Positions 2,877 to 41,596 of a stretch of DNA of 64,000 bases are shown here, piece after piece. Position numbers and translations under genes: made by a program. The stretch is from NCBI GenBank assembly GCA_032718475.1, contig JAUCBJ010002501.1:12675-76674 (forward strand). Direction: 5' to 3'. Numbering within the stretch: position 1 is the stretch's first letter; the number at the start of each line of letters is the position of its first letter. This DNA comes from Nemertoderma westbladi. Taxonomy: Eukaryota; Animalia; Xenacoelomorpha. The notes beneath the pieces are model-generated. The model was not told the origin of the DNA, ran no database searches, and was given only the letters and a program-made list of their open reading frames with translations.

Positions 2877-2902
2877 TTTGTATGTATGTATGTATGTATG
2901 TA

Positions 2903-3007
2903 TTTAATGTTTTGTATATTTTTAGTATTGCATCTTTGGATAGGACGTATTTAGTTTTCCGCAGAACCAATAGATTTCTCGAAACTAAGTTAATTAATTC
3001 TAGGACG
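2903..3007 (-). pseudogene. Downstream continuation of the CR1/L2 ORF2 interrupted by the BEL element
   Basis: Removing 3008-14653 and one TSD joins ...FSSNFKFNDHV (14654+) to LELINLVSRNLLVLRKTKYVLSKDAILKIYKTL, a typical CR1/L2 post-RT region. Confidence 0.8.
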
Positions 3008-3609
3008 TATGACGTCACCTGGTGGCCTGTAAAATGACAAAATGACACTTCCGGTATCCACCAGATAGCAGACAGCAGAAGTGACAGGACACGACTGCAC
3101 TACTCCTGCAACACAGAGAGTAGCCTACCGATGTAGGCATACTGCAGTACTGCTAACTACTGACTGGGAAAATTCATAAAGTTCTTATGGGATTTGTTCC
3201 CAATCCTACAATAACAGACAACATTACTCACCAGCGCCTAGAACAATCCACCAGGTCACCGGGTCCGTCGTCCGTTCTCTATTATATCGTGGGTTACAAC
3301 TTATATTTCCGTCACTCTATTCCGCCGTGGGGAGGGGCTTCACTCGCGGTCAAGCGAGCAAGGTAACTTTGGCAATCAGGTAACTCTATTGGGTTTGGCA
3401 GTTTGGGTATTTATATTAAGGTGCAGGGAGAGCCTGGAGTCTGTTTGGGAGGTTTGGACATCCTTATAAAAGGAGCTCTAGAATTATCAGCCCAGTCAAG
3501 GCTTACACGTGGCCCAGGGGAAGAAATACTTGGAGTACCGCAACCGGCCCTCCTTATTTCCTTCCCGGCTATAGAATCTTCACAAAGGATTCTTTTAGCC
3601 AACGTGATA
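3008..3609 (+). repeat. 5' LTR (602 bp), termini TATGACGT...ACGTGATA
   Basis: Direct repeat of 14075-14653. Differences seen: a 36-nt vs 13-nt replacement (3052-3087 vs 14119-14131) and one G/A substitution. Confidence 0.95.
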
Positions 3610-3627
3610 ATAAGAACTTTTGAATTT
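3610..3627 (+). promoter_or_regulatory. Putative self-complementary primer-binding site
   Basis: ATAAGAACTTT-TGAATTT directly follows the LTR and is the reverse complement of LTR 3170-3188 (AAATTCAtAAAGTTCTTAT, one bulged T). No TGG-type tRNA PBS is present. Confidence 0.55.
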
Positions 3628-5490
3628 AAAATAAAATCGCAGTTCTTCACAATTTCCTTGGCTCAGCAGCCTTGGTGATTAGTGGACTACGGCAGCTCTT
3701 CACCAAAGACTCTGTAGTCTGCGATCAATTTACTTTAGATTACCTCGCATATCGAGTGTCTTTTGTCAGTTGGTCATCAACCAGTGTATATGCGCTGGGT
3801 AGGACAGACGTTCGCTTCCGCAACGGGTCGAAAATTTGCCCTGGAAAAATTATAATCAATCCAAGTCATTATTATTGTTTTTCCGCCAAATTTAATTTAA
3901 TTTTTGGCACAAACCTATATGTTTACCGGCTGAATCAAACTGTCAATGTCAACTGGTCAAACCGCGTTCTGACATTTAATTGGCCAAACCTGCAAACATC
4001 CTTTTATATTGCGACATTTCCGCTGGGAACGTACCGGTCTGTCGGTAGTTTAGGCCCCTACCGTATAGATTTGCAATATATATAATTACCGGTGCGGTAC
4101 CTGTAATAAATTTTATATTGGTACCTATACTCCAAACACAACCCTATTCATACATTAGGGAACTAAGCTCAATCAGCGGTAGTTTTTGTGAATGAGTAGA
4201 CCTAAACTTTCAGGTGTATTTGAGTTGTTTATGTTTTTGCACTTTTGTGTGTGTGTTTGTTTTATATACAGATATTGGCCTACCTAGGCCAATACAGTCT
4301 TGAACCCGTTTTCTGCCAGTCTGTGTCCCTGCTACCGTACATTTGCGAGTAGCCTAGGCCTATGGCCTACCGGTCTTAAATATCTAATCTGAACACAGGT
4401 AGGCCTAATATTTTAGTTATTCATGATTATAATCTGATGATCTGTGAAGTTGTGCATTTTCACATTCCCACATTCAGATTAATTCAAATTTTAATTCCAA
4501 GAAATTTCAAATTTAAATCCTGAGTACCGGTACTGGTCATATTTTGTATAAATTAATTAATATATACCGGCTGACCGGTACCTTCTGCAGTTCTGCTTCT
4601 GTTCAGATTTAGTGGTATACCGGTTTCAGGAGTTTTGCCTATCAGCCTATACTGCTATATATACCGGTATATATCTATATATCTGTACCGTATATAACCT
4701 AGTTAACTCCAGAACTCATAACTGGTTGATAGACCGAGTTACTGAGTTAACCAATTTCAGTACCAGTATTTGATAGGCTATTATTGTCTATTAAAGTGTG
4801 TATATTAATATTATTACATAATAATATTAAAGGTAATAGCGTCCTACATATACTCAACTCAGACGTTATTTCGTTATTATATATATAAAGTACCGATATC
4901 TGAGTATAGACACTGACAGACTGTCTAGTATCTACCAATATATGGTTCGTATCTATATAAATATCAGTATATAGCTAGCCTATATGTATTTAGTATTTAA
5001 TACACTGCCCAACAGCCCAAGCTGCCATAGTGCATAGGCCTATTTAATTGTGTATCTAGGTAGGCCCTACTTCAATATTTACAATATAGACATTATTCAC
5101 CCTCGTCTTATGAGTAATTAACTGCTTCAGTCTAGCAGTAAATCCTATTAATTCTGTAAATATATTTGTGTTTGCCTAATTGTAAGTTACTAGTTTTTGA
5201 TTGCAGTTCTGCAGTTAAGTTTAAAATATAAACACAGTATCGGTACCTACCTGTCTGTTTCAGCCAATTTTAATCTTTTAGGCTATCCACTGACCATGAT
5301 TGAATACAATCTTTTGTGAAAAGGGGATATCATATTACGCTTCCCTACTGCTCCCAATAGGTACAGATAGAGTACCCAACATTTATATTCGGTTCAGTAA
5401 AAGTAGTAGTAAGCTTGCTTCTTTTTAAGACATTCAGACCATTTGGCTTTATTAGGCCTTTGTTGAATATTTCATATATCAATTTTAAAC

Positions 5491-7492
5491 ATGTCTGATG
5501 ATAATGGACAGTATACTACAGATGGGGAAAATCCGAACAATTCGCCATCAGCTTCTGACTTAACAGTAGTTCCCCCACAGCAAGAAAGTGATGAAACCAA
5601 ATCAGAAGAACACCAGCTATTAGCTGTAACAACGAGACCCCTTAGTGAGAGAGCCACAGACTCCTACTTATCAGCTTGTATGCAGTTGAAATTGGAGGGT
5701 ATTGACCCCACTGTCTCTTGTGAACGTTTAGACCACATAAGCTCAGGATATTTATCAGCGTCGACACGGTATCTAAACACATTGGAAGCGAAACTCACCC
5801 CCGAGTATTTCCAGGCTCACCGTCCAGACGAAGTATACACATGGAATGTTGAATTGGAAGCAAAACGACAACGCCTTATGTCTCATTTGGAGTGGATACG
5901 TCTCGTTGCCAAGGCCCGACAATTGGACACTCTTGATCATAGATTACAGATGCGCGCACGTGAGCACGATGGCAGATATCAAAAAATATCTAGTCTATAC
6001 CAAAAATGGTGTGGAGCAGCAGGAGTAATGATGCCTCTATTTTCACCCCCGATCTGCACATTAAGCGAAAGCAGTGTTGCCTCTTCAAAAAGGGAGGACC
6101 GGATGCAACGCTTTGAAATAGCAAAGAAACATAGGGATCGTCGCCTTAAGGAATATCACCAACAGGAAGAATTGATCACTCAACGAAAGCAAACAGAAGC
6201 ATAACAACTGAGAGATAACATAATACTGAGCTCCCAGAAGAGAGCCAACCAACAAGCTGTGGAAGAAAGGATAGCCCAATCTATGAAACGAGAGGTTGAA
6301 GAAAGAGTTGCTGCGGAACAACGTCATCAAGATAATATATTTGAGGAGTTAGCGGAACAGAAGAAACTGAAAGATATGGAGTTTCAATTGCAGAATGATG
6401 CCCTAGATCAACAACAGAAATTTATCCGTCTGCAGTCCCAGCTACAGGAAGTAAATGACACCATTCTGGATGATGCCCCTTTTGTTTCAATTGGACAAGA
6501 AGGGCAGTCTTAGCTACCAGCTGCAAGAGGACCTATCAGCTCATCTCCAATTAATCCCAGTTCCGAGACTTTGCAGCGATATTTACAGCAACCCCTGGTA
6601 CCTGATTTGAATCGGTTGGTTATGGAAGAAAATCAAGAGGATCACTTGATAGACAAAAACCTAGAAGATAGAAAGGGAATGAAGGTCAACGTTGTAACCA
6701 CCCAACCCGACTTGTCACGTCACGTTGAGTTTTGCCCACCAGTACCTAACAAGAGGCGAGCTGACGAAATTCCACCGGAAAAACATAGAATTCTCCTGGA
6801 ATCAGAGGCTTTGAAAGAGGCAAAAGGAACTCCTAAACCTGGTAGAATTGAGCCAAGACATGTAACCTCAGAGATTAGATATGAGCGGCAGGACACTGAG
6901 ACGGCACCATCCTCCCACTATTTCCAGAAGAATCCTGGAAGTGGAAATATACCACAAATATCTTCACCGAGGTATCAAACCTCGAGAGAACCAAAGGTTA
7001 TCTTACATCCAAGGATACAATCAATACCTGTACCACCTCCAATATCCATGCAATACTCTACAAGTATAGGCGGAACCATTCCTAAACACACAAATGCTAT
7101 ATACGATAATAAAATGGGATGGTCACCAATAGACCAATATTCGAATTGGAGATATGAAATGGAGCAGAGTCTGCAGGGTTTATCCCAGAAGATTAATGAA
7201 ATACAGGGTTTACAACCACCCCATGGGCACTGGGGACAGCACATAAGTCAGCTAGCCAAGAACATGGACATATGGTTAAAGGACATTCGGAAGAGTTGCT
7301 TTGATCATGTGGATAGGATCCAAGCAGAAGTTGCGCTCAATGCAGATACGGCCCAACTGCCCCCTCATGAAACTCTAACTTCCAATGGTACCTCAGCTAG
7401 ATAACACTAAGATATTGAACGATCTCGCAGCTAAGTTAACAGAACCCACTCGTCGACGATGGGTAAAGGCATAATTACGTCACCAGCGTCGA
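5491..7492 (+). pseudogene. BEL/Pao gag N-terminal/central region with in-frame stops
   Basis: ORFs 5491-6204, 6259-6513 and 6571-7404 share one frame and encode coiled-coil-like and low-complexity sequence. A frameshift near 7390 leads into ...LNDLAAKLTEPTRRRW, typical of the BEL gag core C-terminus. Confidence 0.7.
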
Positions 7493-9826
7493 TTGAATGA
7501 TCCTAATATTGCCAAAGCCGAACATTTTGTCCAGTTTTTGGAAGAAGAGGTGGATATTCTGGTTTTAATGCCTGTTGCGAAGCCCAATAATACCACAATT
7601 CTTAATAAAGATATTAAAAGAATTTCGAGGGTAAATGCAGTAAGAACAGATGACTCAAGTGATGATGATGAGTTCTTAAATCGGATAGTGGCGAAATTGC
7701 ATAAGCCAGCAAAAGGAAGACATCAGCAATCCAAGGCTCTTAATGCTATCACTCGACCTTCTAAACAAAATATCCCACCCAAACCAACTGTATCCAGAGG
7801 GACAGGTGAGTTGAAATGTATTAAATGTGGAGATACCCATAACTTATTTAAATGTGAAGACTTTAATAAGATGAATCTAGAGAAAAGAAGATCCTTTTGT
7901 CAATGTGAAAAACTTTGCTACAACTGTTTATCAAGCCTCCACCTCCGATCCCATTGTAAGAATAAAAATCGTTGTAAAATTTGTGGTGAAGCCCACCACA
8001 CTATCTTTCATAAAGAAGAACTTACCTCATGTGAAACTAAACGAGAAGAGGCTGCAATGAGAATAGTAGAATCTGAGACAGATTCAGATGCTGCTGGTGA
8101 TGAATATGGAGTTACTGAGTTTGCAGAACATGAGTCAAATTTTATCGATAATGCTGCCATAATTTCCTGTAGACTCAATCGTAGAGGTGGTCCAGTACGT
8201 GAATTTCCGGTTTTGACCTTGAGACTAAATGGCGATAAGGGTTCAACAATTGTTAATGCTCTTGTAGATACGGGTAGCTCGACTACCTTTCTAGATGGGG
8301 ATATTTTCGACCGGTTGTTTGGAGTAACCAAAGAAACTAACCTGCACTTAACGGCCGTAGCCTGGTACCAAGAGATGCCTACGGTAGTGGCAAAGGGTAA
8401 ACTTAGTCCAGCCAGGGATGACGTGGAAGGGGAAATGGCAGAGAACATCAAAATTATACGTATGAATGGTTTAAAAAACGCACTTGGGACTCCCCATGAC
8501 TGGTTGAGTGATGATTTTTCCAAACAATACCAGATTCCTCTAGCAACGGCTGAAGATCCTAAGGTTGTCATGCTCATAGGGCAGAACTGCCCTGAAGCCT
8601 TTCGCGTTTTAGAAACAATCCCGGCAGCTTTCTTGGGAGTGGGGTCATCCAAATACAGTTCGCCATTTGCGGCACGAACACCTCTTGGATGGTATTGTTC
8701 GGGACCATCAGAGAGAACATTAAAAGAGAGAGAATCTGAGAGTATAAATTACATTGAAATACTCACTCATGAATCAGTATGTCGACTACAAGATACATTC
8801 ATAGAACAGGAATTGGCAGCCTTAGGTAGAGACATGACTGAACTGCCCACTCAGGATACTTACGATACCTTAATGCACTTGGTGACTCATAGTGAATCAT
8901 CTAGAACCAACGACGATTATCATAATAATGAAGAATGTTCAGCTTGGGATAATATGACTCTTGATTTGGCCATGCAACGATGGCTTGAGAATGACAGCAC
9001 TAACGTGAATGAGGATAAATTAGCAATGTCTCCAGACGACCTCCATGCTGTGGAGATCCAGCATCGGACGCGCAAACTTCTGCCTGATGGACATTATCAG
9101 ACTGGCCTGCTGTGGCGGGATGATCCTCCACAGCTTATTAACAATTCTAGCCTAGCATATAATAGAGCTCTGAACATGAGAAAAAGGCTGAAGAAGAACC
9201 CTAAATATTTAGATATGTATCAACATCAAATGGATAAATACCTCAAAATTGATTGCGCAGAATTGGTTCCATCTGACCAACAACAATTTGGTCCCAGGTC
9301 ATATTTTATGCCGCATCATTTTGTAACCCATGAAAACAAACCCAACACTGTACGAGTTGTTTTCGACTGTCATGCTACATATAAAGGTAAATCACTCAAT
9401 ACAGAGATACTTCCTGGACCAAACTTATTACAATCTTTGGTAGGAATTCTTATTAGATTTCGTGAGTTTAATGTAGCTTTCGTAGCAGATATAGAAGCAA
9501 TGTTTCTACAGGTACGTGCCCTCCCAGTGGACCAAGACAGCCTCCGATATTATTGGTGGCCGACAACTGAGCTTGAAGGTGAGCCAAGCCAATATTGGAT
9601 GAAGTGCCAACCCTTTGGAGTAATATCCTCACCTAGCAATGCTGAGAGTATTGTGTATGCAACAGCTGATGACAATGCCAATGATTTCAAAAAGGTTATA
9701 ATTGAAACAATAAAGAATAGTTTATATATGGATGATGTTCTTAAGTCACATCCAATCAGTGGAAACTTAATTGATATTGCTCATGTGTTCAAGATTGCCT
9801 GCTCCGGGGTGGCTTTCGACTGGTGA
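7493..9826 (+). pseudogene. BEL/Pao gag zinc knuckles, aspartic protease and reverse transcriptase
   Basis: Triple Cys-His knuckles (CIKCGDTH, CYNCLSSLH, CKICGEAHHTIFH), protease ALVDTGS, RT motifs RVVFD, SLN, ADIEAMFLQ and YMDD. Frameshifts into 9823-10116. Confidence 0.92.
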
Positions 9827-12524
9827 AATTCGCTAGCAACAGCAAGGAACTACTACAGACATTTCCACCAGAAGAACGGGCCTCCCCTACCCTAGACTTA
9901 GATGTAGAGCAGCTCCCAGTAATGAAAACATTGGGACTACGTTGGCGAATGCAAGAAGATGAGTTCTACTTCACAGTTGCCTTTATCGATAATGTGCCAG
10001 CAAAAACACGACGCCAATGCCTTTCGAAAATGCACAAGGTCTTCGACCCATTTGGATATGTTGCGCCAGTAATTATGAGGGCTAAGTTCTTGCTTAAGAA
10101 AACACTTGGCTTTTAGATTTAGATTGGGATGATACTATTCCCCAATTTCTGTTTGAGGCCTGGAGTAAGTGGGAAAGGGACCTTAAACATATAGAACAAT
10201 TAACTATTCCCAGAACATACTTTCCTCACTTGCAAACAACCGAACAACTTCAACTTCATGTCTTTGTTGACGCTTGTGATAATGGGATGGGTGCAACGGC
10301 CTATTTTAGACGAGAGTTGAAGGGTATATTTTCAGTAACCTTTGTTGCTTCAAAATCTCGTATTATGCCTAAACAGGAACTATCAACCCCTAAGGCAGAA
10401 TTGCAAGCTGCTGTGCTGGGAACTGAACTTGCTGAGATTATCACAGCTGAACTTACTCTCAAGGTAGAACAATATTATTGGACTGATGCTACCATAGTAT
10501 TACAATACCTGCATAACCGAAAACATAAACTCTCTGTGTTTATAACAAACCGGGTGACTCGAATATTAAAACGATCACTCCTATATCAATGGCGTCATAT
10601 AGCTGGTACCATTAATCCAGCTGATCTGGCCTGTCGTGGCTCAACAGCAGAAGAATTAGTCAATTCTTCCATATGGTGGAAAGGTCCAGATTTCTTGTGG
10701 GAGACAGAAGATGAGTGGCCTCATGTACTGCGAGATCTAAATCTCCCCAAGGGAGCGGAGATAGTTCCCGATAGAGTATACCCCCCCAAATCTAGGTTGA
10801 TTTCAGGAGAAACCAATACAATAATAAATGTTGAAGATGATCCTACCCCAATTCCCAAAGGTTCAAGTAAAGAGATTCAATTTCCAAACTTAGACAAAGG
10901 ATTGCATCCTTGGTTGAAAAGACTTCTGAGCAGTCAGCAAAGTCTTCGTGCCTCGATTCGGGATATTTGCTACATTCGCCGCATGGCACATTGGTATTGT
11001 TGGCGACAAAAGAATCCCAATACGACCGAGAAACCTCTTAGATTTTTTTGTCCATTAACACTAGAAGAACTAAGGACCAGTTTACAAATGAGACTTCGCC
11101 TCTCACAAAGAATAGCAGATCCAGAACTTTTTTTGAAACATCAACATAATAACCCTATCCCCCCTCAGCGTGTTGCCACAATCATGTCAAATGGGATTAT
11201 TCGAGTTCAAACACGCCTAACAATGGCTCCAGTGTCCTATGACACTATACATCCTATCATGTTGCGCGAACCACTCCTCTTGGAACAATTATTTTATGAC
11301 ACTCACCTTGAACTTAATCACTCAGGAAGAGACCATATCTTGAGTCATTTGAGACAACACTATTTTCTAGTTTCACCCTGGAACTATCTACGGAATGTTA
11401 TGCGCAATTGTCTTCACTGCCGGAGATACAACTCACCACTGATGAAGCAACAGATGGGAGATCTACCCAACGTTCGGATGGCGGCATATGAGCCAGCATT
11501 TACCAATTGTGGAGTGGATATGTTTGGCCCGATATTAGTTAAGCGCACCAGAACTACTGTCAAACGATGGGGCTTATTGGCGGTATGTATGACTACAAGG
11601 GCGATCCATCTGGACGTTTTGTATCAAGCTAACATGGGTTTGTTTTTGTCCGCATTGTCCAGATTGATTGCACGGCGCGGACAACCACATCATATCACCT
11701 CTGATAATGGAGGAAACTTCGTAGCAGCCGAGAAAGAGCTTCGTAAGAATATCAATGAGTGGAATATGCAATCGCTACACGAGCTTCTTGATAATCATCA
11801 AATAAACCTCATAGACTGGTACTTTACTCCACCCCACGCTCCTTGGTATGGGGGAACTTATGAAAGGCTGGTACAGAGTGTCAAACAAGCTTTCTACAAA
11901 CTGTTGCCCGAGGATGAGACTTACACGTATTTGGATGATGAGGCGTTGCGCACATTGTTGGCTCAGATCGAATTAGTTTTGAACAACCGACCATTAACAC
12001 GTATTTCGCAATCTTCTGAATCAGCTGAAGCTCTCACTCCAGCACATTTCCTCTTCTCTAAACCAGCCATTACGATACCAATATCCGAAATGGAGGATAA
12101 TGATCTTCATTCCCGACGCACCTGGAAAGTTCTTCAACTCCTGACTCAACGATTCTGGAACAATTGGTTGATTGACTATTTACCTTCTCAACGCCTAAGA
12201 TCGAAGTGGTTTTGCCAACGACCAAATCTAAATATTGGTGATATCGTCTTAATTCATGACCCTGTACGGCCACGGCGGGATTGGCTTACAGCTACTGTCT
12301 TAGAACCTAACTACAGTGGCGATGGCTTAGTCAGAAGCGCTAAGTTGAAGACGCAGAATGGGAGTATTCTCGAAAGACCGATACAGAAATTATGCCTCCT
12401 TGAACAAGACTCAGAGAAGACAGGTATATATGGTCAATTTCAGCCTCTTCAACATAATCAGCCATGGATCCTTAGTAATATTACAAATACCCAACGGAAA
12501 TCTGTTGACAAACATAAACCGTAA
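9823..12524 (+). pseudogene. BEL/Pao RT thumb, RNase H and integrase (frameshift near 10110)
   Basis: KFASN, KTLGLRW, FDPFG; LHVFVDAC, PKAELQAA, WTDATIVL, NPADLACRG; HHCC zinc finger; GVDMFGP, SDNGGNF, GGTYERLV; C-terminal RPIQKLCLL. Confidence 0.93.
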
Positions 12525-14074
12525 ACGCCGTGTTAATAACTTTAATGATTCTACTTATTAACTGAAACTGTATACAGATAACCGATTTAATATAGCAAAG
12601 AATGAGTGTATTATAATGCGTTGTATGTTTAGTATGAATAGATCGTATGATGTTCATATTTATCTGATCTAAGAAACTAGCGCATGAATTAGAACAAAAT
12701 ATGACATACATAGAGACATATAAACATAATTCCGGTAATAAATTTAAATTTATTTAAATTTATTGAGATTTGTTGAATTTATAGTTAACGATAAAATTTT
12801 TAATTAATGACCAACTTTCAAAAGTAATTCGAGAAAAATTTAATGACTTAATAAAATACATTTTAGACCGAAGGAGGGTCGGAGTGTTTAAAAAATAAAA
12901 ATAACATTTATTATAACTAAAACTGTTTAATTAATTAAAAAATAATTAATCTCTGAAGTTATTCTTCCTCTTGGTTTCAGTTTGGTGAATTTAAGTTATC
13001 ACCAATTTGATTACTTTTACATTTTAAGAGGTAATCGCCTGATTGGATTGATTTTGATTATGAAACAGTGTGATATTATATAACATAATAATAATATAGA
13101 AAAACCCAGGCTATCTCTATGGGTTTATTATTATTGGGGGGAATCGAACGGTGGGTGAGGGACTAATTGCCTTCTCGCCAACTTTGGAATACTCAATTTG
13201 ACTCCCCACGGCAACGGCTATTTACCTAGACTATGGAACCACAGACGTCCTGGGACAAAGATGTTTCGTTGGACCGATGCTAGACCTATATATACCTAGA
13301 CGGATCGGATCTGCGTGACGTGATGGGTGACTCGTCATCTAACTTACCGGTGAACCAAATAATTATCTCAACCTTTCCCTGGAAATTGCCTGCAGACGGG
13401 AAAAACACCGGGTGAATGACCTTCAGGAGTCAGTCCCCGAAAACGGAGTCTATTAGAATTTCAGAAGTTTGATTAATTTGGCGTTGAAATGTTTATATTG
13501 TTAATACTTGGTTTGTTGATAATTTCTTTGATATGATAACTTTACTTGCCGGTAATATAGTTTTATTCAGAAAGCCTATTATATTAATCATGTTATTATT
13601 CTAAGAATATATATTAAGTTATACATATAGTGCAATAGTTTTTACTGGATCAGCAAACATTACCTAGAGAAACCTTGCCTAAATGGGAGCCAGCAAGTAC
13701 TAAGTATTTCATTTCGAGTTAATCATACTCAATCGTAAATTTTTAGAAATTTTTGTTGTTGTTGTAATAACGGTGCAATAATTAAATTAAATGCCTTTGT
13801 TAGTTTATTTTCCCTTATTGATAGTTAATTAATTTGAGTTCCAACTCAAAATGTATACACCATATATACTTAACTACAACTACGTAAATAATTAATAGTT
13901 TAGTATGTGATAGTCACAAATATAGTAGTTTACAACAATTATTAATAACGTATTGTGTTACCAATATAATTATTTACGTGTGTCATAATGGTGAAGGGAT
14001 TACGTGCAATTTATTGTACCACCAGTTTCCTTTTTGTTTATAAATAATTTATAAATAAATTTTTTAGGGAGCGG

Positions 14075-14653
14075 TATGACGTCACCTGGTGGCCTGTAAA
14101 ATGACAAAATGACACTTCTGCACACTTCTACGACACGACTGCACTACTCCTGCAACACAGAGAGTAGCCTACCGATGTAGGCATACTGCAGTACTGCTAA
14201 CTACTGACTGGGAAAATTCATAAAGTTCTTATGGGATTTGTTCCCAATCCTACAATAACAGACAACATTACTCACCAGCGCCTAGAACAATCCACCAGGT
14301 CACCGGGTCCGTCGTCCGTTCTCTATTATATCGTGGGTTACAACTTATATTTCCGTCACTCTATTCCGCCGTGAGGAGGGGCTTCACTCGCGGTCAAGCG
14401 AGCAAGGTAACTTTGGCAATCAGGTAACTCTATTGGGTTTGGCAGTTTGGGTATTTATATTAAGGTGCAGGGAGAGCCTGGAGTCTGTTTGGGAGGTTTG
14501 GACATCCTTATAAAAGGAGCTCTAGAATTATCAGCCCAGTCAAGGCTTACACGTGGCCCAGGGGAAGAAATACTTGGAGTACCGCAACCGGCCCTCCTTA
14601 TTTCCTTCCCGGCTATAGAATCTTCACAAAGGATTCTTTTAGCCAACGTGATA
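14075..14653 (+). repeat. 3' LTR (579 bp)
   Basis: Direct repeat of 3008-3609, preceded by a PPT and followed by the TSD. Confidence 0.95.
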
Positions 14654-17020
14654 GGACATGGTCATTGAACTTGAAATTGGAAGAAAATACCAGTCCCGGG
14701 TGTTTGTGAGTCTCACCACACGGAAGGGCCTCACCATTTAGATGTAGTGACACTGTCTGGTAGGGGATGGAACCATACATAGTCATTACAATGGTTTTCT
14801 CTGGGTTAAAAGTTACGAGCCATTTAGTAGCCCAAGTGTGTAGTTCATGAAGTTCGTGGTTAAGAAAGTGAGCGCGCACAACAGGATGACTGATTCTAGA
14901 TGAAAGAGATGTATCGTCAGCAAACAGTGAACAGTTTGCCGACAATACATCAACAAGGTCATTTATGTAAATAATAAATAAGATGGGACCGAGCACACTT
15001 CCCTGGGGTACGCCAGTGAGCACCGCCAGAAACAGTGAGCATGTCCCATCTAGTACTACACGCTGCCAACGCCCTGATAAATAACATTGGAACCATGCCA
15101 ATAAACGACCGCGGATTCCCATTCTATATGATTTTTCAAGGAGACCTGCGTGCCATACCCTGTCAAAGGCTTTTGTGACATCACAGAATATTACTTGTGT
15201 GACGTCGCCTTCGTCCCAGGCCTGGCACCAGGAGTCGTATAGGAAGAGAAGTTGGTTTTGGCAACTATCGCCGGGAATAAATCCTGATTGTCGTTTCGAT
15301 ATTTTATGCCATAGGAAATTCCAGATATGCTTTCTGACAACAGTTTCAAAAAGCTTAGAAAGGTTATTTAATAAAGAAATTGGGCGATAGTTGCCAGAAT
15401 TATAAAATTCTCCCTTTTTAAAAATTGGAGTAATATTAGAATACTTCCAGGATTGTGGAAAAATAGAAATGTTAAGTAACGCATTAAGTAAAATAGTTAA
15501 ACCAACTATTAAAGAGCCGGATAATGATTTAATAACGCTGTTACTTATTCCATCGATACCAGGAGATCCATTCGTATTTAAGGATGAAATACCTGAACCT
15601 ACGTCCTCTTCTGAAATCTGTATGTGCTCTAGGACTGCTTCTTCAGGGACGCACTGAACAGTCGCGGGGTCGGGGTGTACTGTAGTGAAGTCGGGGGTAA
15701 AGATTGTGGTATGGGATGTACCGCTGCAGGCTCCACGAGATATACCACCGATGGTACAGTCTGGGGTATGGGGTGTGCCGCCGGTGGTACAGTCTGTGGT
15801 ATGGGATGAAGCACTGGGGGCACTACAGGATGTACCACCGATGGTATAGTCTGGGGTATGGGGTGCACTGCTGGAGGTACAATCGGAGGTGTGGGATGTA
15901 CTACCGGTGGTACAGTATGGGGTGCACTGCTGGAGGTACAATCGGAGGTGTGGGATGTACTACCGGTGGTACAGTCTGGGGTATGGGGTGCACTGCTGGA
16001 GGTACAGTCGGAGGTGTGGGATGTACTACCGGTGGTACAGTCTGGAGTATGGGGTGCACTGCTGGAGGTACAATCGGAGGTGTGGGATGTACTACCTGTG
16101 GTACAGTCAGGGGTATGGGGTGCACTGCTGGAGGTACAATCGGAGGTGTGGGATGTACTACCGGTGGTACAGTCTGGGGTATGGGGTGCACTGCTGGAGG
16201 TACAATCGGAAGTGTGGGATGTACTACCGGTGGTACAGTCTGGAGTATGGGGTGCACTTCTGGAGGTACAATCGGAGGTGTGGGATCTACTACCAGTGGT
16301 ACAGTCGGGGGTATGTGGTGAAGCACTGGAGGTACTACAGAAAGTACCACCGGTGGTACAGGCTGGTGTGTGGGATGTACTAGCGGTGGTGCTGTCTGAG
16401 GTGTGGATTGTACTGGGGTCGTCGGTAATAAACCTGGTAAAGTGGAATTAATGACAAATCTGTTATTTAGAACTTGGGCATTGTCAAAGGCTTCATACAC
16501 CGCTGTATCACCATCAAATAAGAACGGGATGGATAATAATTTGTTTTTCCCCAGTACCGACTTTACTATTGAAAACTATTTCTTAGAGTCTAAGTTGCTG
16601 GAACTTTTGGTTGATAAATACAATTCACTAGAATATGAAGCCTTAGCTAAGCGAACTTTTTGAGTGACAAAATTTCGATATTTTCTGAATTTGACCCATT
16701 GATTTGAGTTGTTGGGTGTCCCTTTGGCTCGTTTGTGTAGCCTTTCCCTGCGCCTGAACAGTGAGCGCAACTCATTATTTATCCACTTAGGGTCGCTGGA
16801 TCTGGTTTTTATTTTGTGGCTGGGAATAAATCTATTCGTACCTTCAAGTAAAGTCTCTGTGAGAAAATTAACACCTTCAACAGGGTCATCGGCATGTGCA
16901 CCAAAGTAGCTACTAAGACATTTGCTATTTAGGAATTGTCTGAATTCTCTCCAGTTCACTTTGTCATAATCCCATACGGTACGAATGAAAAGGGGTGGCG
17001 GTTTAATATCAACGTGAGAC
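14654..17020 (-). mobile_element. 5'-truncated CR1/L2-type LINE ORF2 (linker and RT), host of the BEL insertion
   Basis: WDYDKVNW, PKWINNEL, SPGIDGI, NYRPISLL, DVTKAFDRVWH, GVPQGSVLGP and LFADD in ORFs 16576-17043, 15901-16500 and 14613-15941. Confidence 0.92.
15700..16420 (-). repeat. 66-bp (2x33-bp) coding minisatellite within LINE ORF2
   Basis: Encodes (VVHPTPPIVPPAVHPIPQTVPP)n. A 7-nt deletion near 15917 shifts the frame. Confidence 0.9.
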
Positions 17021-17023
17021 AGA

Positions 17024-17982
17024 CTTGCACCATTCTTGTTCATAATTGTTGTTGACTATGTTCTACGCATGTCCTTAGATCATCATAATGATGATGGGGT
17101 GATGATAACTCCACCTACTGGTTCCAGAAGTCGAGGAAATCCTGCCAAGTACCTAACTGATCTAGACTTTGCTGATGACTTAGGGGTACTCTCAGAATCA
17201 CTAGAGGGAGCCCAATGGCTCCTCAGCTCATTAGAACATGCTGCTTCTAGTGTTGGTCTTTTTATTAACTCCAGAAAGACCAAAATTTTGACAGTTAACT
17301 TTGAAAGTCCTCAGCAAGTCTCTGATCGGATGAGCATAAGCTCAAAAGATGGTATGCTTGAGCATGTGGATGACTTCTGTTACCTGGGATCATGGATCCG
17401 GAAGTCAGGTGAGGACGTTCGAATACGTAAGGGAAAGGCATTGGCAGCCTTTAATAGGCTTTCCAGGATTTGGAAGTCACCGAGAATTAATCGGAAACTT
17501 GAGGTCCGATTATTTAGAGCAGCAGTAGTTCCAGTACTCCGCTATGGGATTCCATGCTGGGCTCTAACTGCTCAGGACACCAAATCTCTGGATGGCACAT
17601 TCACAAGAATGCTACGCCGGGTTCATTGTGTCAAGTACAATGCACACATCTCCAACGAGACACTATATAACATTGGAGGTATCTCATTGCTTCCCCCAAG
17701 CTTGACACTAGAACAAAATCGCCTCCGCTTTGCAGGACATTGCTTTCGCCGTGAGGACCAGCCAGTGCATAATCTTGTACTTTGGCAGCCCCATGGAGTG
17801 AATAAGCATGGTGGACAGCCCATGACTTTCTTGAGACGCATCTTAAAGGACACTGGCCTTGAAGATGCGGATAATCTAGCAAATGTCATGGGTGATAGGG
17901 AGTTGTGGCGGTGCAATTTTGTCGATAAGCCGGCACAGCATTCTTAAAAATGCAGCTGCAATGCAGCATGCCGATCCTAGTA
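17024..17982 (+). mobile_element. RTE-clade LINE 3' fragment (RT C-terminal half and short 3' UTR)
   Basis: LAPFLFIIVVDY, LDFADDL, DFCYLGS, RLRFAGHCFRR. Its tail ...gcagctgcaatgcagcatgccgatcctagtag recurs at ~1495-1560, 2481-2536, 18945-19007, 29550 and 31915. Confidence 0.9.
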
Positions 17983-18288
17983 GATACTAATTGGTACTAC
18001 AATTTAGAATTTGTCAATTTGTACAACACAAATACATTTCTGTTTAGATTGGCGGTCATGTAGATTGTCGAACTATTAGCTTGTTGCTTTTGAGAATTTA
18101 AAGAAAGTGTTCAATGTTAGTTAACTTTAGTAACTGTTTTTCACTCGTCTATTGAACAAGAAGATTATTAGTTATATTAATTAGGGCTTATTTGACAGGT
18201 TTGGTACATTTTAGTGGGAAGTTTTGTAAACTTATTTGCACTGTCTCATTTCATTTCAGTCCGGATTCCACTGGCTGCAAATACGAAT

Positions 18289-18665
18289 ATATGCGTATGG
18301 TGTATGCGTATGGTGTATGCATATGGTGTATGCGTATGGTGTATGCGTATGGTGTATGCGTATGGTGTATGCGTATGTTGTATGCGTATGGTGTATGCGT
18401 ATGGTGTATGCATATGGTGTATGCGTATGGTGTATGCGTATGGTGTATGGGTATGGTGTATGCGTATGGTGTATGCGTATGGTGTATGCGTATGGTGCAT
18501 GCGTATGGTGTATGCGTATGGTGTATGCGTACGGTGTATGCGTATGGCGTATGCGTATGGTGTATGCGTAGGTATGGTGTATGCGTAGGTATGGTTTATG
18601 CGTATGGTGTATGCGTATGGTGTATGCGTAGGTATGGTGTATGCGTATGGTGTATGCGTATGGTG
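18289..18665. repeat. 13-bp minisatellite (TATGCGTATGGTG)n
   Basis: Reverse complement of the 1841-2176 array, with a different copy number. Confidence 0.95.
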
Positions 18666-19281
18666 AAAATTATAGGCCTCAGATGACTAGAGAGGACCTA
18701 AATATGATTTATGGCTTATGGCTTATGAAATGGCTTATGATTAAGCTATTATAAAGTTAGTATATTTATATTATTTATATTATATTTAATATAATAAGTA
18801 TAAAGAAACTTAAGAAGTTAAGCTTCCGGTTTATTAATCATGTATTATAATTAGTAATACACTATTGAATGTTTAAAAATGTATTATTATTTCAGATCTT
18901 AGTCACAAGGTACAGGTAATTATTATTATTACTGGCCTTAGGTACTACTAGGATCGGCATGCTGCATTGCAGCTGCATTTTTAAGAATGCTGTTCCGGCT
19001 TGTCGACATACTTTTAGGCATTAGGTACACGGTTAATGGAGCCTCTTATAGATACCCTAACTGACGAAATAGTAAAATACGTATGAGAGACTAATGCACT
19101 AATATAATGCTTAAAATATCGAATTTTAAATTATGTACTAAATAAAACGAAATGTTATTATCATATTTAATAGAGAGCAAAACAAAAACAACATGGGTGT
19201 TACAAATCCATTATACGTAATGTAATGCACAGTACATTGTTGCAACAGTCTCCAATTTCCACCAATGTTGTAGTCCATTAA

Positions 19282-20703
19282 CCCTATTACCACTGGGGTG
19301 TTTTGACCATTAGCACCACTGGGGGGGGGGGGCCGATTCGGCCCACCCACTATATTTTTGTAGTCGTCCAATGAAATCCTACAAAATTTGGGCTGTTGGT
19401 GAAACAACTATAGATGAACACTACCAAACCTTAAAAAATTAAAATTTCATAAGCAGGGACTCATAATTTTGATGAAAAATAAAAGTAGTCCCAGGACAAA
19501 ATTACAAAATTTTTCGTTTTCTAAAAACTAATAGTGTGGCAGTGTTGGCTAGATTTAGTAGGTTTTTCAAGACGCTGAATCGAATGTGATTATATTCCAC
19601 TTCCAAAAATTGAAGTGGATGCTATTTTTCGTGCACCTAAGAAGTGGGCGTGGCACTTCAAATTTTGAAAAATTAGATATTCAGAAAAAGCCCCTAATTT
19701 TTTTATTTCAACGCATCTTTATGGGTTTTCTGGGCCGCTGAATCGATTGAAAGTAATATAGAAGCCTGAAGACTGAGTGGTTCGCCATTTTTGGTGCACC
19801 AAAATTAGGGCGTGGCACTTCAAATTTTGAAAAATACGAGATTCGGAAAATAAACCAAAATTGAAATTTTAACGAATTTATATAGGTTTTCCAGACCCCT
19901 GAATCGATTGAAAGTAATATAGAAGCCTGAAGACTTAGAAGTTAGCCATTTTTTGAAATCAAAACTTTAGTGTTTTTTCCGAATAAAGTAATTTTGAAAA
20001 TTTGAAGTGCCACGCCCTAATTTTGGTGCACCGAAAATTACGTACACAAAGGATTTGAGGCTTCTATATTACTTTCAATCGATTCAGCGCTCCAGAAAAC
20101 CTATAAAATTAATTTGAAATCAAAACTTTAGTGAATTTTCCGAATCTCGTATTTTTCAAAATTTGAAGTGCCACGCCCTAATTTTGATGCACCAAAAATG
20201 GCGAACCACTAAGTCTTCAGGCTTCTATATTACTTTCAATCGATTCAGCGCTCCAGAAAACCTATAAAAATGCTTTGCAAATCAATACTTTAGTGTATTT
20301 TCCGAATCTCGTATTTTTCAAAATTTGAAGTGCCACGCCCTAATTTTGGTGCACCAAAAATAGCGAACCACTACACTTACATACTTGTATAGAGCATTAG
20401 AGTGATCCAAACCAATAAAAATAAATAAAAATAGCCCAAACATAAATAATTACTAAATCACGAATGACTTTGTAAAATTCGAAAATTTCAAAAAATTTGG
20501 TGCTGGAGACCAAATTTTGAGGTGGCACCCACATCGAAATGTAGAAATCCAATTGCAACGGCGTTTTTTGCAAAAGATGCGGCATTAAATTTGGCTAATT
20601 CTCACAAAAAATTGGGCCGGTACGTAATGTCGTTGCATAGTTACAGCAACTAAAAACTAGGAAGGGGCCGATTCGGCCCCCCCCCCCCCCAGTGGTAATA
20701 GGG
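19282..20703. mobile_element. piggyBac-like non-autonomous DNA transposon
   Basis: TTAA TSD (19278-81, 20704-07), TIR CCCTATTACCACTGGGG/CCCCAGTGGTAATAGGG and internal inverted ~120-bp repeats. The empty site ctcTTAAtgg is at 1228-1237. Confidence 0.93.
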
Positions 20704-23060
20704 TTAAGAGTGGGTCGCTTTCGACACTGCTGAGATGCTGTGACAGAAGAAAACTGAAGATAAAAAAGTGAATTTATCATTCCGGTATTGAATTAGCTGT
20801 ATATTATTCTACACTTAACACGCATGATATGGGTATCTAGACTACATGTATTAAATTATGTGTTTATGTTTTTGTGTAACAATTTTCCGTATACATACAT
20901 ATAATTGAATTGCACCGCAAAATATTGGGTTATATATAAAATAATATTATAGCAGTACGTAGCTCCTTCACCATGCTATTTAATTCCTATTAGGATATTC
21001 AACGGTGCACAGACGATGGCTTGCCGGGAAGGCCCATTACGCAAACCACCTCCTTTACACATATACATACAGTATATAACAAGATTACGTATCGTATTTA
21101 AACAATCCGTATATACTGTAGTACGTCTAACTACAACTACTGTAAATTACATACCTAAAATAAATGTATAAAACAAAGAACCGGTATATCGTATAAATGA
21201 TATATATCATCTATATTACTATGCATGCACACAAGGGTATAAGTTGATTAATCTTATATGTAGATATAAAGCCGTTCTAATAATAAAACCCTTTCTAATA
21301 AGAGTTACTGTATACTGGATTGAGAAAAGGGTTTAAGAAAATTATTGTAATAGATGGGATAATGCTGGAAAATTACCTGAGATATGTAAGATATGGATAA
21401 TGCTATAAAATAAGCTAAGATATATAAGTTTAAAGGATGACTAATTTATAACTAGTGTACAAAATTTTATATGAGTTACTTATTATTAGTTTTGATTACT
21501 TGTTTTTAGATATCGTTTGAGACAATTTAAAGATAGATATTCTAGGTCGGTGCCTTACAGAGATTGGGAGGCTGTTCCAGACCTCGGGTGCTTGGACCCT
21601 GATGGATTGCCTGGCGACCAATAGCCTAGTCCGGTGCGTTACACAGTTGTTGTTAATAGCGGTGCGGGTACAATGGTCGTGAGTCGTAGATGAGGGTGTG
21701 TTGTTAGATGTCAGTGTTACCCCTGCTTTGTACTATCCGTTGAGCCCTCTGTTGTAGTCTGTGCAGTGATTTAATTGTAGTATTTCGGTTGTCAGTATCT
21801 GTCTGTTGTTTCCGCCTTCGTCTGGAGTGTCGATGTATTGGCGTTTGTCTTGGTGGCCCTGTATTGTCGTTGTTTGTATTATATTTTTGTGCCCAGACAG
21901 CATTGCAGTATTGTAAGTAGCGGCCTATCATCGTGTTATACAGTATTGTGAGAATCTGTGGGTTGATGGAGTTTTTTATTTTGTTAATAAAACCGACATT
22001 CCAGCTTATTTTGGTCCGTATATATTCGAAATGGTGTTTCCAAGTCGAAATGATGCGTTGTTTATTGTCACAGTTGTGTCAGTGTCTAGTTTCAGATTTC
22101 TGTTGTTAGTATGGAAGATAATGTAAGTCGGAAGAATGGAAGTCGGTTTAGTTGGAACCATTTAGTCAGTTTATATAAATCGTCGTTTCGATGTGAGATA
22201 AGTTGATGAATGTCCGTACCTGATTTTAGAATGTTCATGTCGTCATCAAACTTTGGTGGTTCACTGTGAACTCACACTTGTCCAGTGAAAGGAGGGTTAA
22301 TAATGCGTGTTGGGTGCACCGTTTTGTTCTAAATCCGAATTGTGCTGGTGTTAGTATAATTAAATAAATTAATTAATTAGCATAATTAAATAGTCTGTTA
22401 GTTCGGTCTGTACAATCGAGTTCAATTCGAGTATTTTTGAGAAGTATGTAAGTACTGATATTGGTCTGTAATTTTGTACGAATGTCGGATTTACTGATTT
22501 GAAAATAGGTGTGATACGCGCAATTTTCATTTGTTTTGGTACTGAGCCGCTACTGAGAGATATATTCACAATGTTTGAGAGCGGTTCAGCTATTAGTGTG
22601 ATGGTCGGGTACACAGCAGTGGCTGGCAATCAAAGTGGTGGACAATATTTTCGTTCACTGCAGATATATCTCTATTGATATATCCTGCCACCATTGGTTG
22701 ATGGCCAAATGACATTGAATCTGTGATTAATGCTGAGAGAACCACATTCTCGTAAGTAATTGTCTCTATCCTCTCTTTGACCCCCGTCGCAGTGCATAAA
22801 GATCTCAATTATCAAGCCTCTGATAGATACAGCAATGAATGACTCTCTGTCTGTGCCAGTTTTAATTCGTTCACAGTGCTGGTATATATTTTCCTTCCTT
22901 CATGAAAATGGCAGTGCCACCTTTGCCTCTCACTGTCATTTTCGGTATGGAAATGCCTTCAGTGATAGTGAAAAGGCAGTAGTAAATATTCAATGTAAAT
23001 AGGACAATATGATAATGCTCTCCATAGCGAAAAGTATCAACCGGCCCTATTGGGACTTGA

Positions 23061-23713: not shown

Positions 23714-24439
23714 CAATAGGGCCGGTTGATATTTTTCGCTATAGAGAGCATTATCATATTGCCCTATTTACATTGTATATTTAATACACCGCGTCACTCA
23801 CCCCACAACAATTCACTTATTATTAAAAGGCAGTAGTTGCAGCCCTTATGTATTATCTCGTCCCGCATCCCTAACCAGTCTTCCTGGATGATAAAGATGT
23901 CTGGTCTGTTCATTGTGAGAAAGTTATTAATGTATTGTTTATTCCTGGTATATCCTTGACAGTTATAGGTAGCAATACTGATTTTGGTTATCATCCTATC
24001 CATTGGGTGTCTCATATCATCAGACTAGGATAATTTATCAACAGTAGTATTAACAATTTATCAAGAGTCTATCAAGCCTGTATATAGACTGACTCAAGGT
24101 ATTATTGGATTAATCAAGTTGGATCTTGACTATAATCAGTTTATTTGAGATATATTATCTTTGTTGGATTTGGATAAAATTAGAAATACTTCTCGTTCTT
24201 AAACCACATGGAGCAACATACAATGGCTAATACAAGATCTGCTGTCATGTAAATTGTGGAAAGAAAGAGAAAATATATATTACTCATTTCATATGCTATA
24301 GCCAAAACGTTTAATATTGTACATGGTACCATTGTATTCAACACAATGATGGTTGCTCTTTCATACATTTAATAACACATGCCTACACTACTAACTAATG
24401 TACAGGTTAACAGTATATTATGACGATGGGCTTACTGAT

Positions 24440-25702
24440 TTAATATAGAGTACTCCCTCTAGCTCTAATGATAACTAGATAGCTAATGATTATGATGAGA
24501 AATGGAACGATGGGAAGACTAATCAATGAGGCAGCTGATTGGAAACCAAAATAGTCATCTAACATTCCTCCAAAGAGCGCACCTATGATGTTTCCACAAG
24601 CCAAAGATAACCTAACAATTTGTTGAACCAATGTCCGTATATCGACGTTGTCTGTTCTGTCCTTTAATGCAATGCGAGTTAGAGTTTCTGTACCGCAACT
24701 AATAAACAATCCTACACCAACTCCGAGAAAACAGCATCCAAATATTGACAATGGCAGACTCAATGGTAACCCTAGCAACTGTGTTGGTCCAATCAATTGC
24801 ATGGAAATTATTATTGAAACATATCCTATGATGGTGGGATACACTGGGTTTAGAAGTGAACATTTCTGCATTACAAAACTCATTGCAAACACGGTTGCAG
24901 CAGATGAAACAACATTCCCCACCATGATCAATCCGATGTTCATTTGTGGCATTTCGTAAACATCATGGACATACACAGCGTAGTTTGCAGCATAATATAG
25001 ATATGTTGTTTCGCCAACTATTGTCAAAATCGATAGTGTACTAGTACAAAAGTTGCTAAGCAATGAAATCAAGTCGGGTCTTGGTTCGGTAGATGACGAT
25101 CTGTCAAGTATATTTTCTGGAGACTCGAAACAACAATATAAATTTACAACCAATATGGTAATTCCTGGAATTAAAAATGCTCCTCTAAATCCAATGGTTG
25201 TGTATAAGAATGACCCAAGCACAGGTGCAGACGTCAAGCCTAATCCAAGCATCACTTGTGAGATTCCAACAACCATAGTTCGATTGTGAGGATATAGATC
25301 CATTAGTAAGCTGAAACTAAAGATGTAACTGATGTTTCCTCCAATAGCATCTAAAGTTCTAAAGATAAAGCATGTACAAATATGAACAGTATTGTTGGTG
25401 ATATCCTCCACAAATCCGAATGCTGAAAGAGAAAGTGCTCCAAGGATCCCAAACACACCATAGGAGAGGCGACTTCCGAGATTTATAATGGAGTTTCCAC
25501 ATGTGATGAATATGATAAGTCGTGCAGCTGGGTATATAGCTAGCACACTACCAGTCATGGTCTTAGACCAGTTACGACCTTCGACAACAATTGGGAAAAA
25601 GGAGTCTAAAAGTGCAAAGCACAACCCTGGAATAACCTGGGAGAAAAAGAGAAATCCTGTGAGTATTATTTTCCTGCGGTTGATATCCATTATAGTTATC
25701 AT
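24440..25702 (-). CDS. MFS transporter, SLC18B1-like, single coding exon, copy 1
   Basis: Uninterrupted ~420-aa ORF with about 12 hydrophobic segments and SLC18B1-like motifs LLDSFFP, RTLDAIG, GLGLTSAPVLGSFLYTTIGF, GALFGGMLDDYFGF. First ATG at 25702; an upstream exon is not excluded. Confidence 0.85.
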   Translation of the reverse strand: MITIMDINRRKIILTGFLFFSQVIPGLCFALLDSFFPIVVEGRNWSKTMTGSVLAIYPAARLIIFITCGNSIINLGSRLSYGVFGILGALSLSAFGFVEDITNNTVHICTCFIFRTLDAIGGNISYIFSFSLLMDLYPHNRTMVVGISQVMLGLGLTSAPVLGSFLYTTIGFRGAFLIPGITILVVNLYCCFESPENILDRSSSTEPRPDLISLLSNFCTSTLSILTIVGETTYLYYAANYAVYVHDVYEMPQMNIGLIMVGNVVSSAATVFAMSFVMQKCSLLNPVYPTIIGYVSIIISMQLIGPTQLLGLPLSLPLSIFGCCFLGVGVGLFISCGTETLTRIALKDRTDNVDIRTLVQQIVRLSLACGNIIGALFGGMLDDYFGFQSAASLISLPIVPFLIIIISYLVIIRARGSTLY

Positions 25703-26077
25703 TGATGGACCACCATATAAAAAACACAAGAAATAAAATATAGCACAATATATAACTATATAATACCAGAAGACTTATAAATAACCTACTTTACTGTACT
25801 TGTTTACATTTATTTTACAATTATTTTAGGGTTTTCTTTTGGCTAGAGTTATTGGGATGACAGCAGAGTGAAGTTCTCCACTGAGAAATAGTGATAGTGA
25901 AGAATGGTCCTACACACAGTGATGTCCACTATACCTTTCATGTAAGTATATAGTAAATGTTTAGAATGATCTTGGTAGGTAATATTTTTGTCAACAACAT
26001 TCTGATGGAAACCCAACTGGCATCTTTGGGGTTTTTCCTAAAAATTACCATATTCTACATCGGATCATGACTTATTA

Positions 26078-26268
26078 GGCCGCGTTCACATTACCGAGTC
26101 AAAGTCAAAAGACAAAAATGTAAAACACATCACATGAAATTTAATTTTTTCTAGAATGCCCTTATGTATTATATTAGGCCTATATAATGTATTATTATTT
26201 ATTATTGCAAGCTAGCTATAATTATTTTCTTTTGACTTTGACTGTGACTTGGTAGTGTGAACGCGGCC
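26078..26268. mobile_element. PIF/Harbinger-type MITE
   Basis: TIR GGCCGCGTTCACA/TGTGAACGCGGCC with a TTA TSD, ~375 bp upstream of the MFS ATG. Confidence 0.8.
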
Positions 26269-27149
26269 TTATGCAAAAACAATACGATTTTCGAATCTCA
26301 AGTTCGAAAAAAGTGTTCCAGAACTTTTTTACTCACCATTATTCCAATGGAAACAGCCACGGTCTCAAGTTATAAAGTGTGCTAATCTTAAAGACTATGA
26401 ACTTTTAAGGTGAAAGAATTTAAAAGAGAAATTCAATAACACAATTGCATAAACTCATAATAAAATCTAATATATTTAAAAACCATTCATCAATTGCAAT
26501 AGATGTATTAAATTCAACTATCTGCCAAATACATTCAAAATACATAATTACATATTCGTCTCCAGCAAAAATAAGTGAGGTGTGACTGGATTTAAAATTG
26601 ACAAAAAAGTGTGTCCTATAGCGTTACATCATAGTATTCTCCATAGAGATTACTATGATGTAAGTTAAACAGTTATGGAAATAAATATGTACAATTTAAT
26701 ATATTATAGGGAAGAAATCGGATAAAATGTCTTAACCATTCCTTGAGAGGATTTCTTAATGGCAATTTATATAAAACCCTCAATGATCCTCAACTGGGCA
26801 TCAGTGTGATTATTGATGACAATCGTATTACCATAATACAAAATATTTACTATATACTCCCATGCAAGGTTCAGTGAATAAAAGTTCGTTCAATAAATAT
26901 GCCGGATTATCAGTGAGGTTTCATGCAAGATCCATGCATGATTAGTATTAATTCATTCAGTCATATGTGGAATCAACTTCAGGGTATCAATAATGAATTT
27001 ATATGGGGATATAAAAATTCATTTGAAGTGTCATGGGTGACACACTTGCTTTTATTATCTTTATTATGGTGGTTGATTATTTACTGCGAATTTCTCAACA
27101 TAATACAGATGGTGTGGAAATACAAACAGACTGTGGTAGTAGCTGCCAG

Positions 27150-27392
27150 TAGTGCGAGAAAAGCGCCAATATATTTATTGGACCTAGACTTTGCTGATGA
27201 TGATCTGTGTTTAAAGTCAGCAAAATTGGATGGTGCAAAAGCAGCATTCATTGTCAATGTATCTATAAATGCTATGAATTCCAAAATTTTGATTCTAAAC
27301 TTGGATTCCCCCCAGCAAGTCTTTGACTGTTAGAGTCTTCATTAAGATTTTGGTTGAAGTTATTGATCATGTAGTAGACTTCAGCTACCTGT
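27150..27392 (+). pseudogene. Old RTE RT fragment (duplicated at ~42670-42900)
   Basis: YLLDLDFADDD...NLDSPQQV resembles the 17036 ORF. Confidence 0.65.
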
Positions 27393-35450: not shown

Positions 35451-35582
35451 TAGAGTTCTTTTCACTAGTTCTATTAAATTTAGTAGTGATTAGTAGTTAT
35501 TAGTAGTTAGTAGTGATTATAGTAGGTAGCTGTGATTGGTTATTTTTGTATTTGGTTATATTACTTAATATTTGGAATAAAT
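35451..35582. mobile_element. 132-bp TAG-rich insertion with 10-bp TSD
   Basis: ATCTGTAAGC at 35441-50 and 35583-92; single in copy 2 (~49226-35). Confidence 0.75.
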
Positions 35583-35634
35583 ATCTGTAAGCAGAAGTGG
35601 TCTAAATATAGTAGCTGGATCATGCAATCGCGAG

Positions 35635-41221: not shown

Positions 41222-41596
41222 TGATGGACCACCATATAAAAAACACAAGAAATAAAATATAGCACAATATATAACTATATAATACCAGAAGACTTATAAA
41301 TAACCTACTTTACTGTACTTGTTTACATTTATTTTACAATTATTTTAGGGTTTTCTTTTGGCTAGAGTTATTGGGATGACATCAGAGTGAAGTTCCCCAC
41401 TGCGAAATAGTGATAGTGAAGAATGGTCCTACACACAGTGATGTACACTATACCTTTCATGTAAGTATATAGCAAATGTTTAGAATGATCTTGGTAGGTA
41501 ATATTTTTGTCAACAACATTCTGATAGAAACCCAACTGGCATCTTTGGGGTTTTTCCTAAAAATTACCATATTCTACATCGGATCATTACTTATTA

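Follow-up and report, generated by a model that had tools for sequence, protein, structure and literature searches.

How does a retrotransposon that shows no tRNA primer binding site (PBS) begin to copy its RNA? The question is raised by an LTR element in the 64,000-nucleotide stretch of Nemertoderma westbladi DNA analysed here (the window). The element is of the BEL/Pao type, and these elements (Belpaoviridae) are officially tRNA-primed, their replication being poorly understood; the ICTV profile gives them an 18-nt PBS for tRNA-Arg or tRNA-Gly and a length of 4.2-10 kb (PMC8742986). The earlier note on this DNA proposed that the element primes with a segment of its own LTR in the manner of Tf1, in which, according to the available text of PMC7175516, the first 11 nt of the RNA pair with the PBS and RNase H cuts between nucleotides 11 and 12. 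Self-priming is described for Tf1, Tf2, Tj1 and the sushi and Tcn1 groups (available portions of PMC4600332, PMC5341516, PMC7175516 and PMC3601003).

The element, its ends and its coding region

Two direct repeats 11,044 bp apart bound an 11.6-kb insertion at 3008-14653 (all features of the element are on the + strand). The alignment of its 602-bp 5' LTR (3008-3609) with its 579-bp 3' LTR (14075-14653) has one base difference over 3088-3609, and a polypurine tract (14066-14074) adjoins the 3' LTR. The left target-site duplication (3003-3007) is the 5-bp sequence GGACG, and the right one (14654-14658) is GGACA, which is also the sequence of the empty site; the left copy thus departs from both at its last base. 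It had been claimed that the 3' LTR and the target-site duplication together set the LTR edge. The edge itself stands, since in public DNA runs contigs of other insertions begin at 3008 (runs X1 and X3), one of X1 stops at 3609, and empty-site contigs in X2, X3 and X5 agree, but because of the mismatch the duplication alone does not fix it. The same loose ends at 3008 and 3609 rule out a 6-bp duplication with shifted LTR ends. The termini are TAT..ATA (3008-3010 and 3607-3609) and not TG..CA, so joining by the integrase would need to take place at TA, not CA; among the relatives described below L028 likewise has TAT..ATA, and L013 and L051 end in ATA. A patch of U3 at about 3056-3087 is rearranged between the two LTRs. 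Its counterpart in the 3' LTR (14123-14131) is shortened, rearranged and next to a short inverted repeat, and the X2 and X3 contigs have extra letters at the patch, as the 5' LTR does.

The copy in the window is young, because its insertion site is empty in contigs of DNA runs X2, X3 and X5, and it is broken. Its gag-pol gene has in-frame stops at 6202 and 6511 and frame breaks near 7400, 9800 and 10110, and relative to the X2 contigs it is about 0.6 kb short near 7390. The X1, X2 and X3 contigs differ from it by about 1% internally. Its two LTRs agree at base 3170, where the X1 and X3 copies have another letter, which indicates that it probably passed through reverse transcription after diverging from them, perhaps, broken as it is, with a helper in trans.

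The gag-pol gene (5491-12524) encodes three Cys-His motifs in Gag (7817, 7916 and 7973), and such a triple motif is a mark of the BEL/Pao family. These are followed by protease (8261), reverse transcriptase (YMDD at 9725), RNase H (10263-10614, with its acidic residues present), integrase (11511-11859) and a DUF5641 domain, giving the order PR-RT-RH-IN. Pfam finds PF05380 (Peptidase_A17, E 1.5e-29), PF18701 (DUF5641, E 5.7e-22) and integrase domains, and no chromodomain at E 0.1. Among protein relatives, named or unnamed, the best identity is 36-37%, and all 72 matches carry Peptidase_A17, DUF5641 or both. The BEL/Pao identity given to the element by the earlier note is thus borne out by its Pol domains and their order, its LTRs, polypurine tract and target-site duplication and its nearest relatives; the Peptidase_A17 and DUF5641 domains, the triple Cys-His motif, the PR-RT-RH-IN order, the LTRs, the polypurine tract and the 5-bp duplication are all shared with Belpaoviridae (Semotivirus), and by sequence the element classes as a divergent member. 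It differs from the ICTV description in having no TGG site and a length of 11.6 kb (PMC8742986). The tRNA PBS is a descriptive trait in that profile, and membership of the family rests on Pol (PMC8742986).

Between the 5' LTR and gag-pol lies a long leader (3628-5490), of which positions 3641-3647 can pair locally with the PBS position. Rfam has no match over 2900-5600, ARAGORN finds no tRNA within the window, and 13 ATGs fall within 3178-5490. Donor-like splice sites are present in the LTR (3363-3385) and acceptor-like sites in U5 (3574 and 3598) and before gag (near 5429), an arrangement that suggests a spliced mRNA skipping the PBS and the 1.9-kb leader. The 3' non-coding stretch (12525-14065) is 1.5 kb long and has no ORF of 100 aa, and 13331-13654 is passed over by an X3 contig. 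DNA contigs also contain a weak joint between 5006 and 13929, with 20 letters a side.

Pairing of the PBS position with the LTR

The PBS position (3610-3627) is complementary to LTR positions 3170-3188. As the earlier note had it, the candidate self-primer, 3178-3188, finds its exact reverse complement at 3610-3620, and seven further pairs (3621-3627 with 3170-3176) follow once T3177 is bulged out. No TGG occurs within 48 nt of the 5' LTR, the first being at 3659, where it is altered in run X1. The 3' LTR repeats the candidate primer at 14222-14232. When the LTR was shuffled with dinucleotides preserved, 16 of 20,000 shuffles gave a match of at least 11 nt starting 0-5 nt from the LTR end (P about 0.001). 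The duplex energy is -16.8 kcal/mol, compared with -8.7 +/- 1.6 in shuffles, and was attained by one shuffle in 2,000. Of 1,857 possible starts in the leader only 3610 itself gives 11 nt, and 5 of 10,430 reach at least 11 nt over the whole internal region. The sequence thus has two features that a Tf1-like mechanism predicts, a PBS complementary to about 11 nt of the element's own LTR and a complement that ends at the LTR edge.

Contigs of X1 and X3, which come from other insertions, have no listed difference in 3171-3188 or 3610-3627; their base at 3170 is G, which would keep a G-U pair. The LTR is joined to the leader with the same 382-letter spacing in the X1, X2 and X3 contigs. An ordinary TGG site deleted from the window copy, raised in the earlier note as a possible refutation, is ruled out, because the non-TGG site and the spacing recur in copies inserted elsewhere. 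These copies are too close to the window element to show compensatory change.

A primer assembled by splicing was also considered for this element, and a junction search of its LTR did not find one: none of 28 junctions beats the contiguous 11 nt. The two donor-like sites (GT at 3363 and 3380) are downstream of the candidate primer, and their junctions do not match the PBS.

The position at which the RNA begins is important to this proposal. The best promoter-like motif of the LTR, TATAAAAG, lies at 3465-3472 (not 3464-71, as had been given), downstream of the candidate primer. It is both the only TATAWAWR in the LTR and its only hexamer of the AATAAA/ATTAAA/TATAAA type, and could be a TATA box, with an initiator-like A 29 nt on at 3494, or a variant poly(A) signal. 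Read as the latter it is 144 nt from the LTR end, compared with 49-126 nt in relatives, and no GU-rich tract, which a poly(A) site would prefer, directly follows it. No AATAAA or ATTAAA follows the pairing partner in the window LTR, contrary to most relatives. Near 3170-3178 there is no TATA box and one common initiator-like hexamer (near 3176; the LTR has nine). Folding predicts that the PBS would pair with a probability of 0.998-0.999 in RNAs starting at 3170-3178, 0.49 in one starting at 3100 and 0.03 in one starting at 3008. Two hairpins, likely in U5, are predicted at 3518-3566 and 3567-3600 and are predicted to be stable, and the predicted fold of 3494-3700 has a z of -4.7. In Tf2 a downstream start gives an RNA unable to prime, and LTRs in general can use more than one start (available part of PMC5341516), so both starts could be real in the window element as well.

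Related elements

Relatives were sought with an alignment of 15 proteins, which gave 78 loci in metagenome contigs, 29-42% identical; no relative came from single-protein scans of viral and metagenome contigs or from a scan of viral contigs with the alignment. No long direct repeat was present in 41 of the 78 loci. From the 37 that had one, 24 were dropped before counting because they were circular, were cut at a contig end, were internal repeats or duplicated a family. This leaves 13 relatives in which the LTR's 3' end could be set from a second copy (that of L049 is the contig end, and those of L028 and L031 were set by eye). Each LTR was searched for contiguous matches to the PBS position and for matches across GT..AG junctions inside the LTR, under rules that were tuned after the first relatives were known; the acceptor rule was relaxed between rounds, which added L034 and makes that rule post hoc. 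Many of the loci may stem from a few host species.

The check on related BEL families that the earlier note called for can thus be reported: in 10 of the 13 the PBS position, starting 0-3 nt past the LTR, matches 10-13 nt of the element's own LTR, and the letters differ between families. Two of these matches are contiguous (L039 and L051), and eight exist only across a predicted splice junction, with introns of 71-164 nt. The LTRs with predicted junctions, in the coordinates of their contigs, are L007 6465-6864, L021 7363-8014, L024 6490-7107, L028 6399-6951, L030 682-1077, L032 2079-2772, L034 6285-6686 and L049 1851-2241, to which the later L092 (1001-1770) is added. L007 and L049 would have a first exon of about 5 nt. 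The two TGG-type relatives, L004 and L013, have no LTR match, and L031 has neither a TGG nor an LTR match.

For each of the ten matching relatives the same search was applied to 200 internal control positions, and none gave a match as long as the observed one. An 18 x 18 cross-test pairs every PBS with the LTR of its own element, and 8 of the 306 off-diagonal cells reach 10 nt; six of these eight are among the sister families L021, L024 and L032, whose PBSs are near-identical and are therefore counted once, so that the distinct primer sequences number eight. In 9 of the 10 the partner is followed downstream by a poly(A)-type hexamer (AATAAA, ATTAAA or AATACA), and this order fits the one that self-priming would need. 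L007 has a TATA box 31 nt before the first paired base, and the TATA-like motif of L032 is 133 nt upstream, which indicates that some RNAs may begin ahead of their primer.

Eight open-ended loci were scanned outside the 10-of-13 count. Four (L026, L047, L062 and L064) have a junction match after an ACA, L005 and L066 have several ambiguous matches, and L041 and L057 have no match. In a later set of 15 loci, the pol match was flanked by both LTR ends in three elements. L092 has an 11-nt junction match under the fixed rule (0 of 100 controls); L081 was missed by that rule and on inspection has 11 contiguous nt at offset 4; and L085, of the TGG type, has no match. We note that L079-L093 are BEL/Pao elements in contigs filed under bacterial genome bins and in a Wolbachia chromosome, probably through host contamination or, for L085 in the Wolbachia chromosome, which is complete, with its two LTRs and a TGG site, through insertion.

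In a FastTree phylogeny of the RNase H-integrase ORF all the self-matching relatives included form one supported group, and the two TGG-type ones are outside it; this tree omits 20 of the 78 loci (short ORFs) and represents L032 by L033, and, like the trees that follow, it is unrooted and without named clade references. The window element is a long branch, of open placement in FastTree and on the self-matching side in IQ-TREE (SH-aLRT 98 and 87), and a 30-row tree joins it to another long branch. An AU test did not reject its grouping with the TGG side (p 0.24). Given this open position and the 30-42% identity, the pattern of the relatives transfers to the window element by analogy.

Self-priming and its alternatives

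Self-priming is the best reading of these observations, with a probability that we put at about 0.7, as a putative trait of many BEL/Pao families and not of the window copy alone. It is preferred because the pairing is beyond chance, is kept in other copies, recurs with different letters in relatives and is absent from the TGG-type ones. The original proposal is strengthened by the different-letter matches in 10 of 13 relatives and by exclusion of a deleted TGG site, but its scope has to change: what had been presented as the property of one element appears widespread, and most relatives would have to splice their primer, which the window element need not do.

In the window element the genomic RNA would start at or shortly before 3170-3178. 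Its 5' end would fold back to pair with 3610-3627, leaving about 420 nt of R-U5 in the loop, and a cut at or near 3188/3189 would free a 3'-OH at the LTR edge; by analogy with Tf1 the element's own RNase H would probably make that cut. Reverse transcriptase would then copy U5-R back to the cut and jump to the 3' LTR. The TATAAAAG at 3465 would be a poly(A) signal, or else a second promoter making a primer-less mRNA.

The chief competing account takes the TATAWAWR at 3465-72 and its initiator-like A at face value and has the RNA start near 3494. The partner would then be part of U3, and only its 3' LTR copy (14214-14232) would be transcribed, so that pairing would close the RNA into a circle, or a primer would come from its 3' end or from a dimer's second RNA. 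The missing GU-rich tract right behind the motif agrees with this account, which we nevertheless consider unlikely: in nine of the ten matching relatives the partner is upstream of the poly(A)-type hexamer, cutting the 3' U3 would presumably break the template that reverse transcriptase must later copy, and a start near 3494 could be one of several, as with the primer-less mRNA of Tf2 (PMC5341516, text available in part). Chance complementarity in a copy that lost its ordinary PBS is very improbable. Many elements were scanned, and four other internal starts among the 10,430 reach at least 11 nt; against this stand the P of about 0.001, the sharing of the site by other insertions and the repetition of the pattern in relatives.

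A host RNA with the same 3' end, such as a half-tRNA or another small RNA, might be the primer, with the LTR match a decoy or remnant. The last five bases of the candidate primer may resemble an Ile(UAU) anticodon loop. Half-tRNA priming occurs in copia lineages, including with half-tRNA-Ile in Bianca (PMC6317226, available part), but the PBS letters vary by family and track each element's own LTR, which a fixed host RNA would not do, and this account seems improbable. Alternatively the pairing could be real and serve packaging, dimerisation or a translation switch while priming takes another route. The PBS can also pair with leader positions 3641-3647, as a switch might, yet the matches of 10-13 nt end 0-4 nt from the LTR edge, where the 3' end of a primer must be, and they replace the TGG site instead of accompanying it; we give a purely structural role little credence.

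If self-priming is the mechanism, it would be a variant of a known one. Tf1 and Tf2 (Schizosaccharomyces pombe), Tj1 (S. japonicus), the Tf1/sushi group and Tcn1 (all Ty3/gypsy chromoviruses) have in common with the window element the lack of a tRNA PBS, the 11 nt past the 5' LTR that are complementary to their own LTR, a primer 3' end at the LTR edge and an RNase H (PMC7175516 and PMC4600332, so far as their available text goes). The window element differs in its BEL/Pao polyprotein, its TAT..ATA termini, its seven extra pairs and its loop of about 420 nt, its start and cut being predicted, and most BEL/Pao relatives differ further in that they would need splicing to make the primer. The window element may therefore work like Tf1, but its BEL/Pao domains and lack of a chromodomain indicate that it is not a member of the Tf1/sushi group.

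The C. elegans BEL/Pao element Cer7 was reportedly proposed by Ganko et al. in 2001 to encode its own primer, said to be a tRNA-like segment in the 3' internal region, whereas the partner in the window element is in the LTR. The literature searched, mostly without subscription papers, supplements or Repbase/GyDB notes, contained no self-primed BEL/Pao element, self-priming appearing only in the gypsy and copia groups, and in the same mostly subscription-free literature a splice-built primer had no precedent. In the available parts of the sources, a BEL/Pao survey (PMC3118150) lacks the terms "primer", "PBS" and "tRNA", the Sinbad paper (PMC554778) lacks "tRNA", and PMC8220671 and PMC5443660 hold nothing relevant. 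Self-priming has been predicted from sequence in the TAR lineage (Houba, Osr-1) of plant Ty1/copia elements (PMC6317226, available part); that lineage belongs to another superfamily and host kingdom and lies outside the Tf1/sushi group, and so gives repeated origins a precedent.

A self-primed branch of BEL/Pao would make it the third LTR superfamily with this mechanism, would bear on whether hairpin priming is old or has arisen repeatedly, a question posed in the available text of PMC3601003, and would explain BEL/Pao elements in which PBS finders find nothing. From the pairing one can predict start sites and LTR introns and then check them with RNA data. We also entertain, at slightly less than even odds, a wider picture in which much of BEL/Pao does without tRNA priming and uses the 5' end of its own RNA, usually spliced by the host within the LTR, so that replication is tied to splicing. 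The window element would be a divergent intron-free form, whose downstream TATA box would yield a primer-less mRNA and so separate translation from replication.

Elsewhere in the window are fragments of two non-LTR retrotransposon reverse transcriptases (14613-15959 and 17018-17947), and the BEL/Pao element sits in an abundant repeat beside the first of them. The 5' flank region (5-2876) is duplicated in inverted orientation at 17928-22586, along with a 13-bp tandem array. A 4.2-kb segment occurs twice with 97% identity (23812-28012 and 39332-43477), each copy with an uninterrupted 444-aa ORF for an MFS transporter (PF07690), which may be a retrogene or the cargo of a transposon. At 57234-59587 (- strand) and 35581-36966 there are long ORFs (250-461 aa) that have no Pfam match and are likely transposon remnants.
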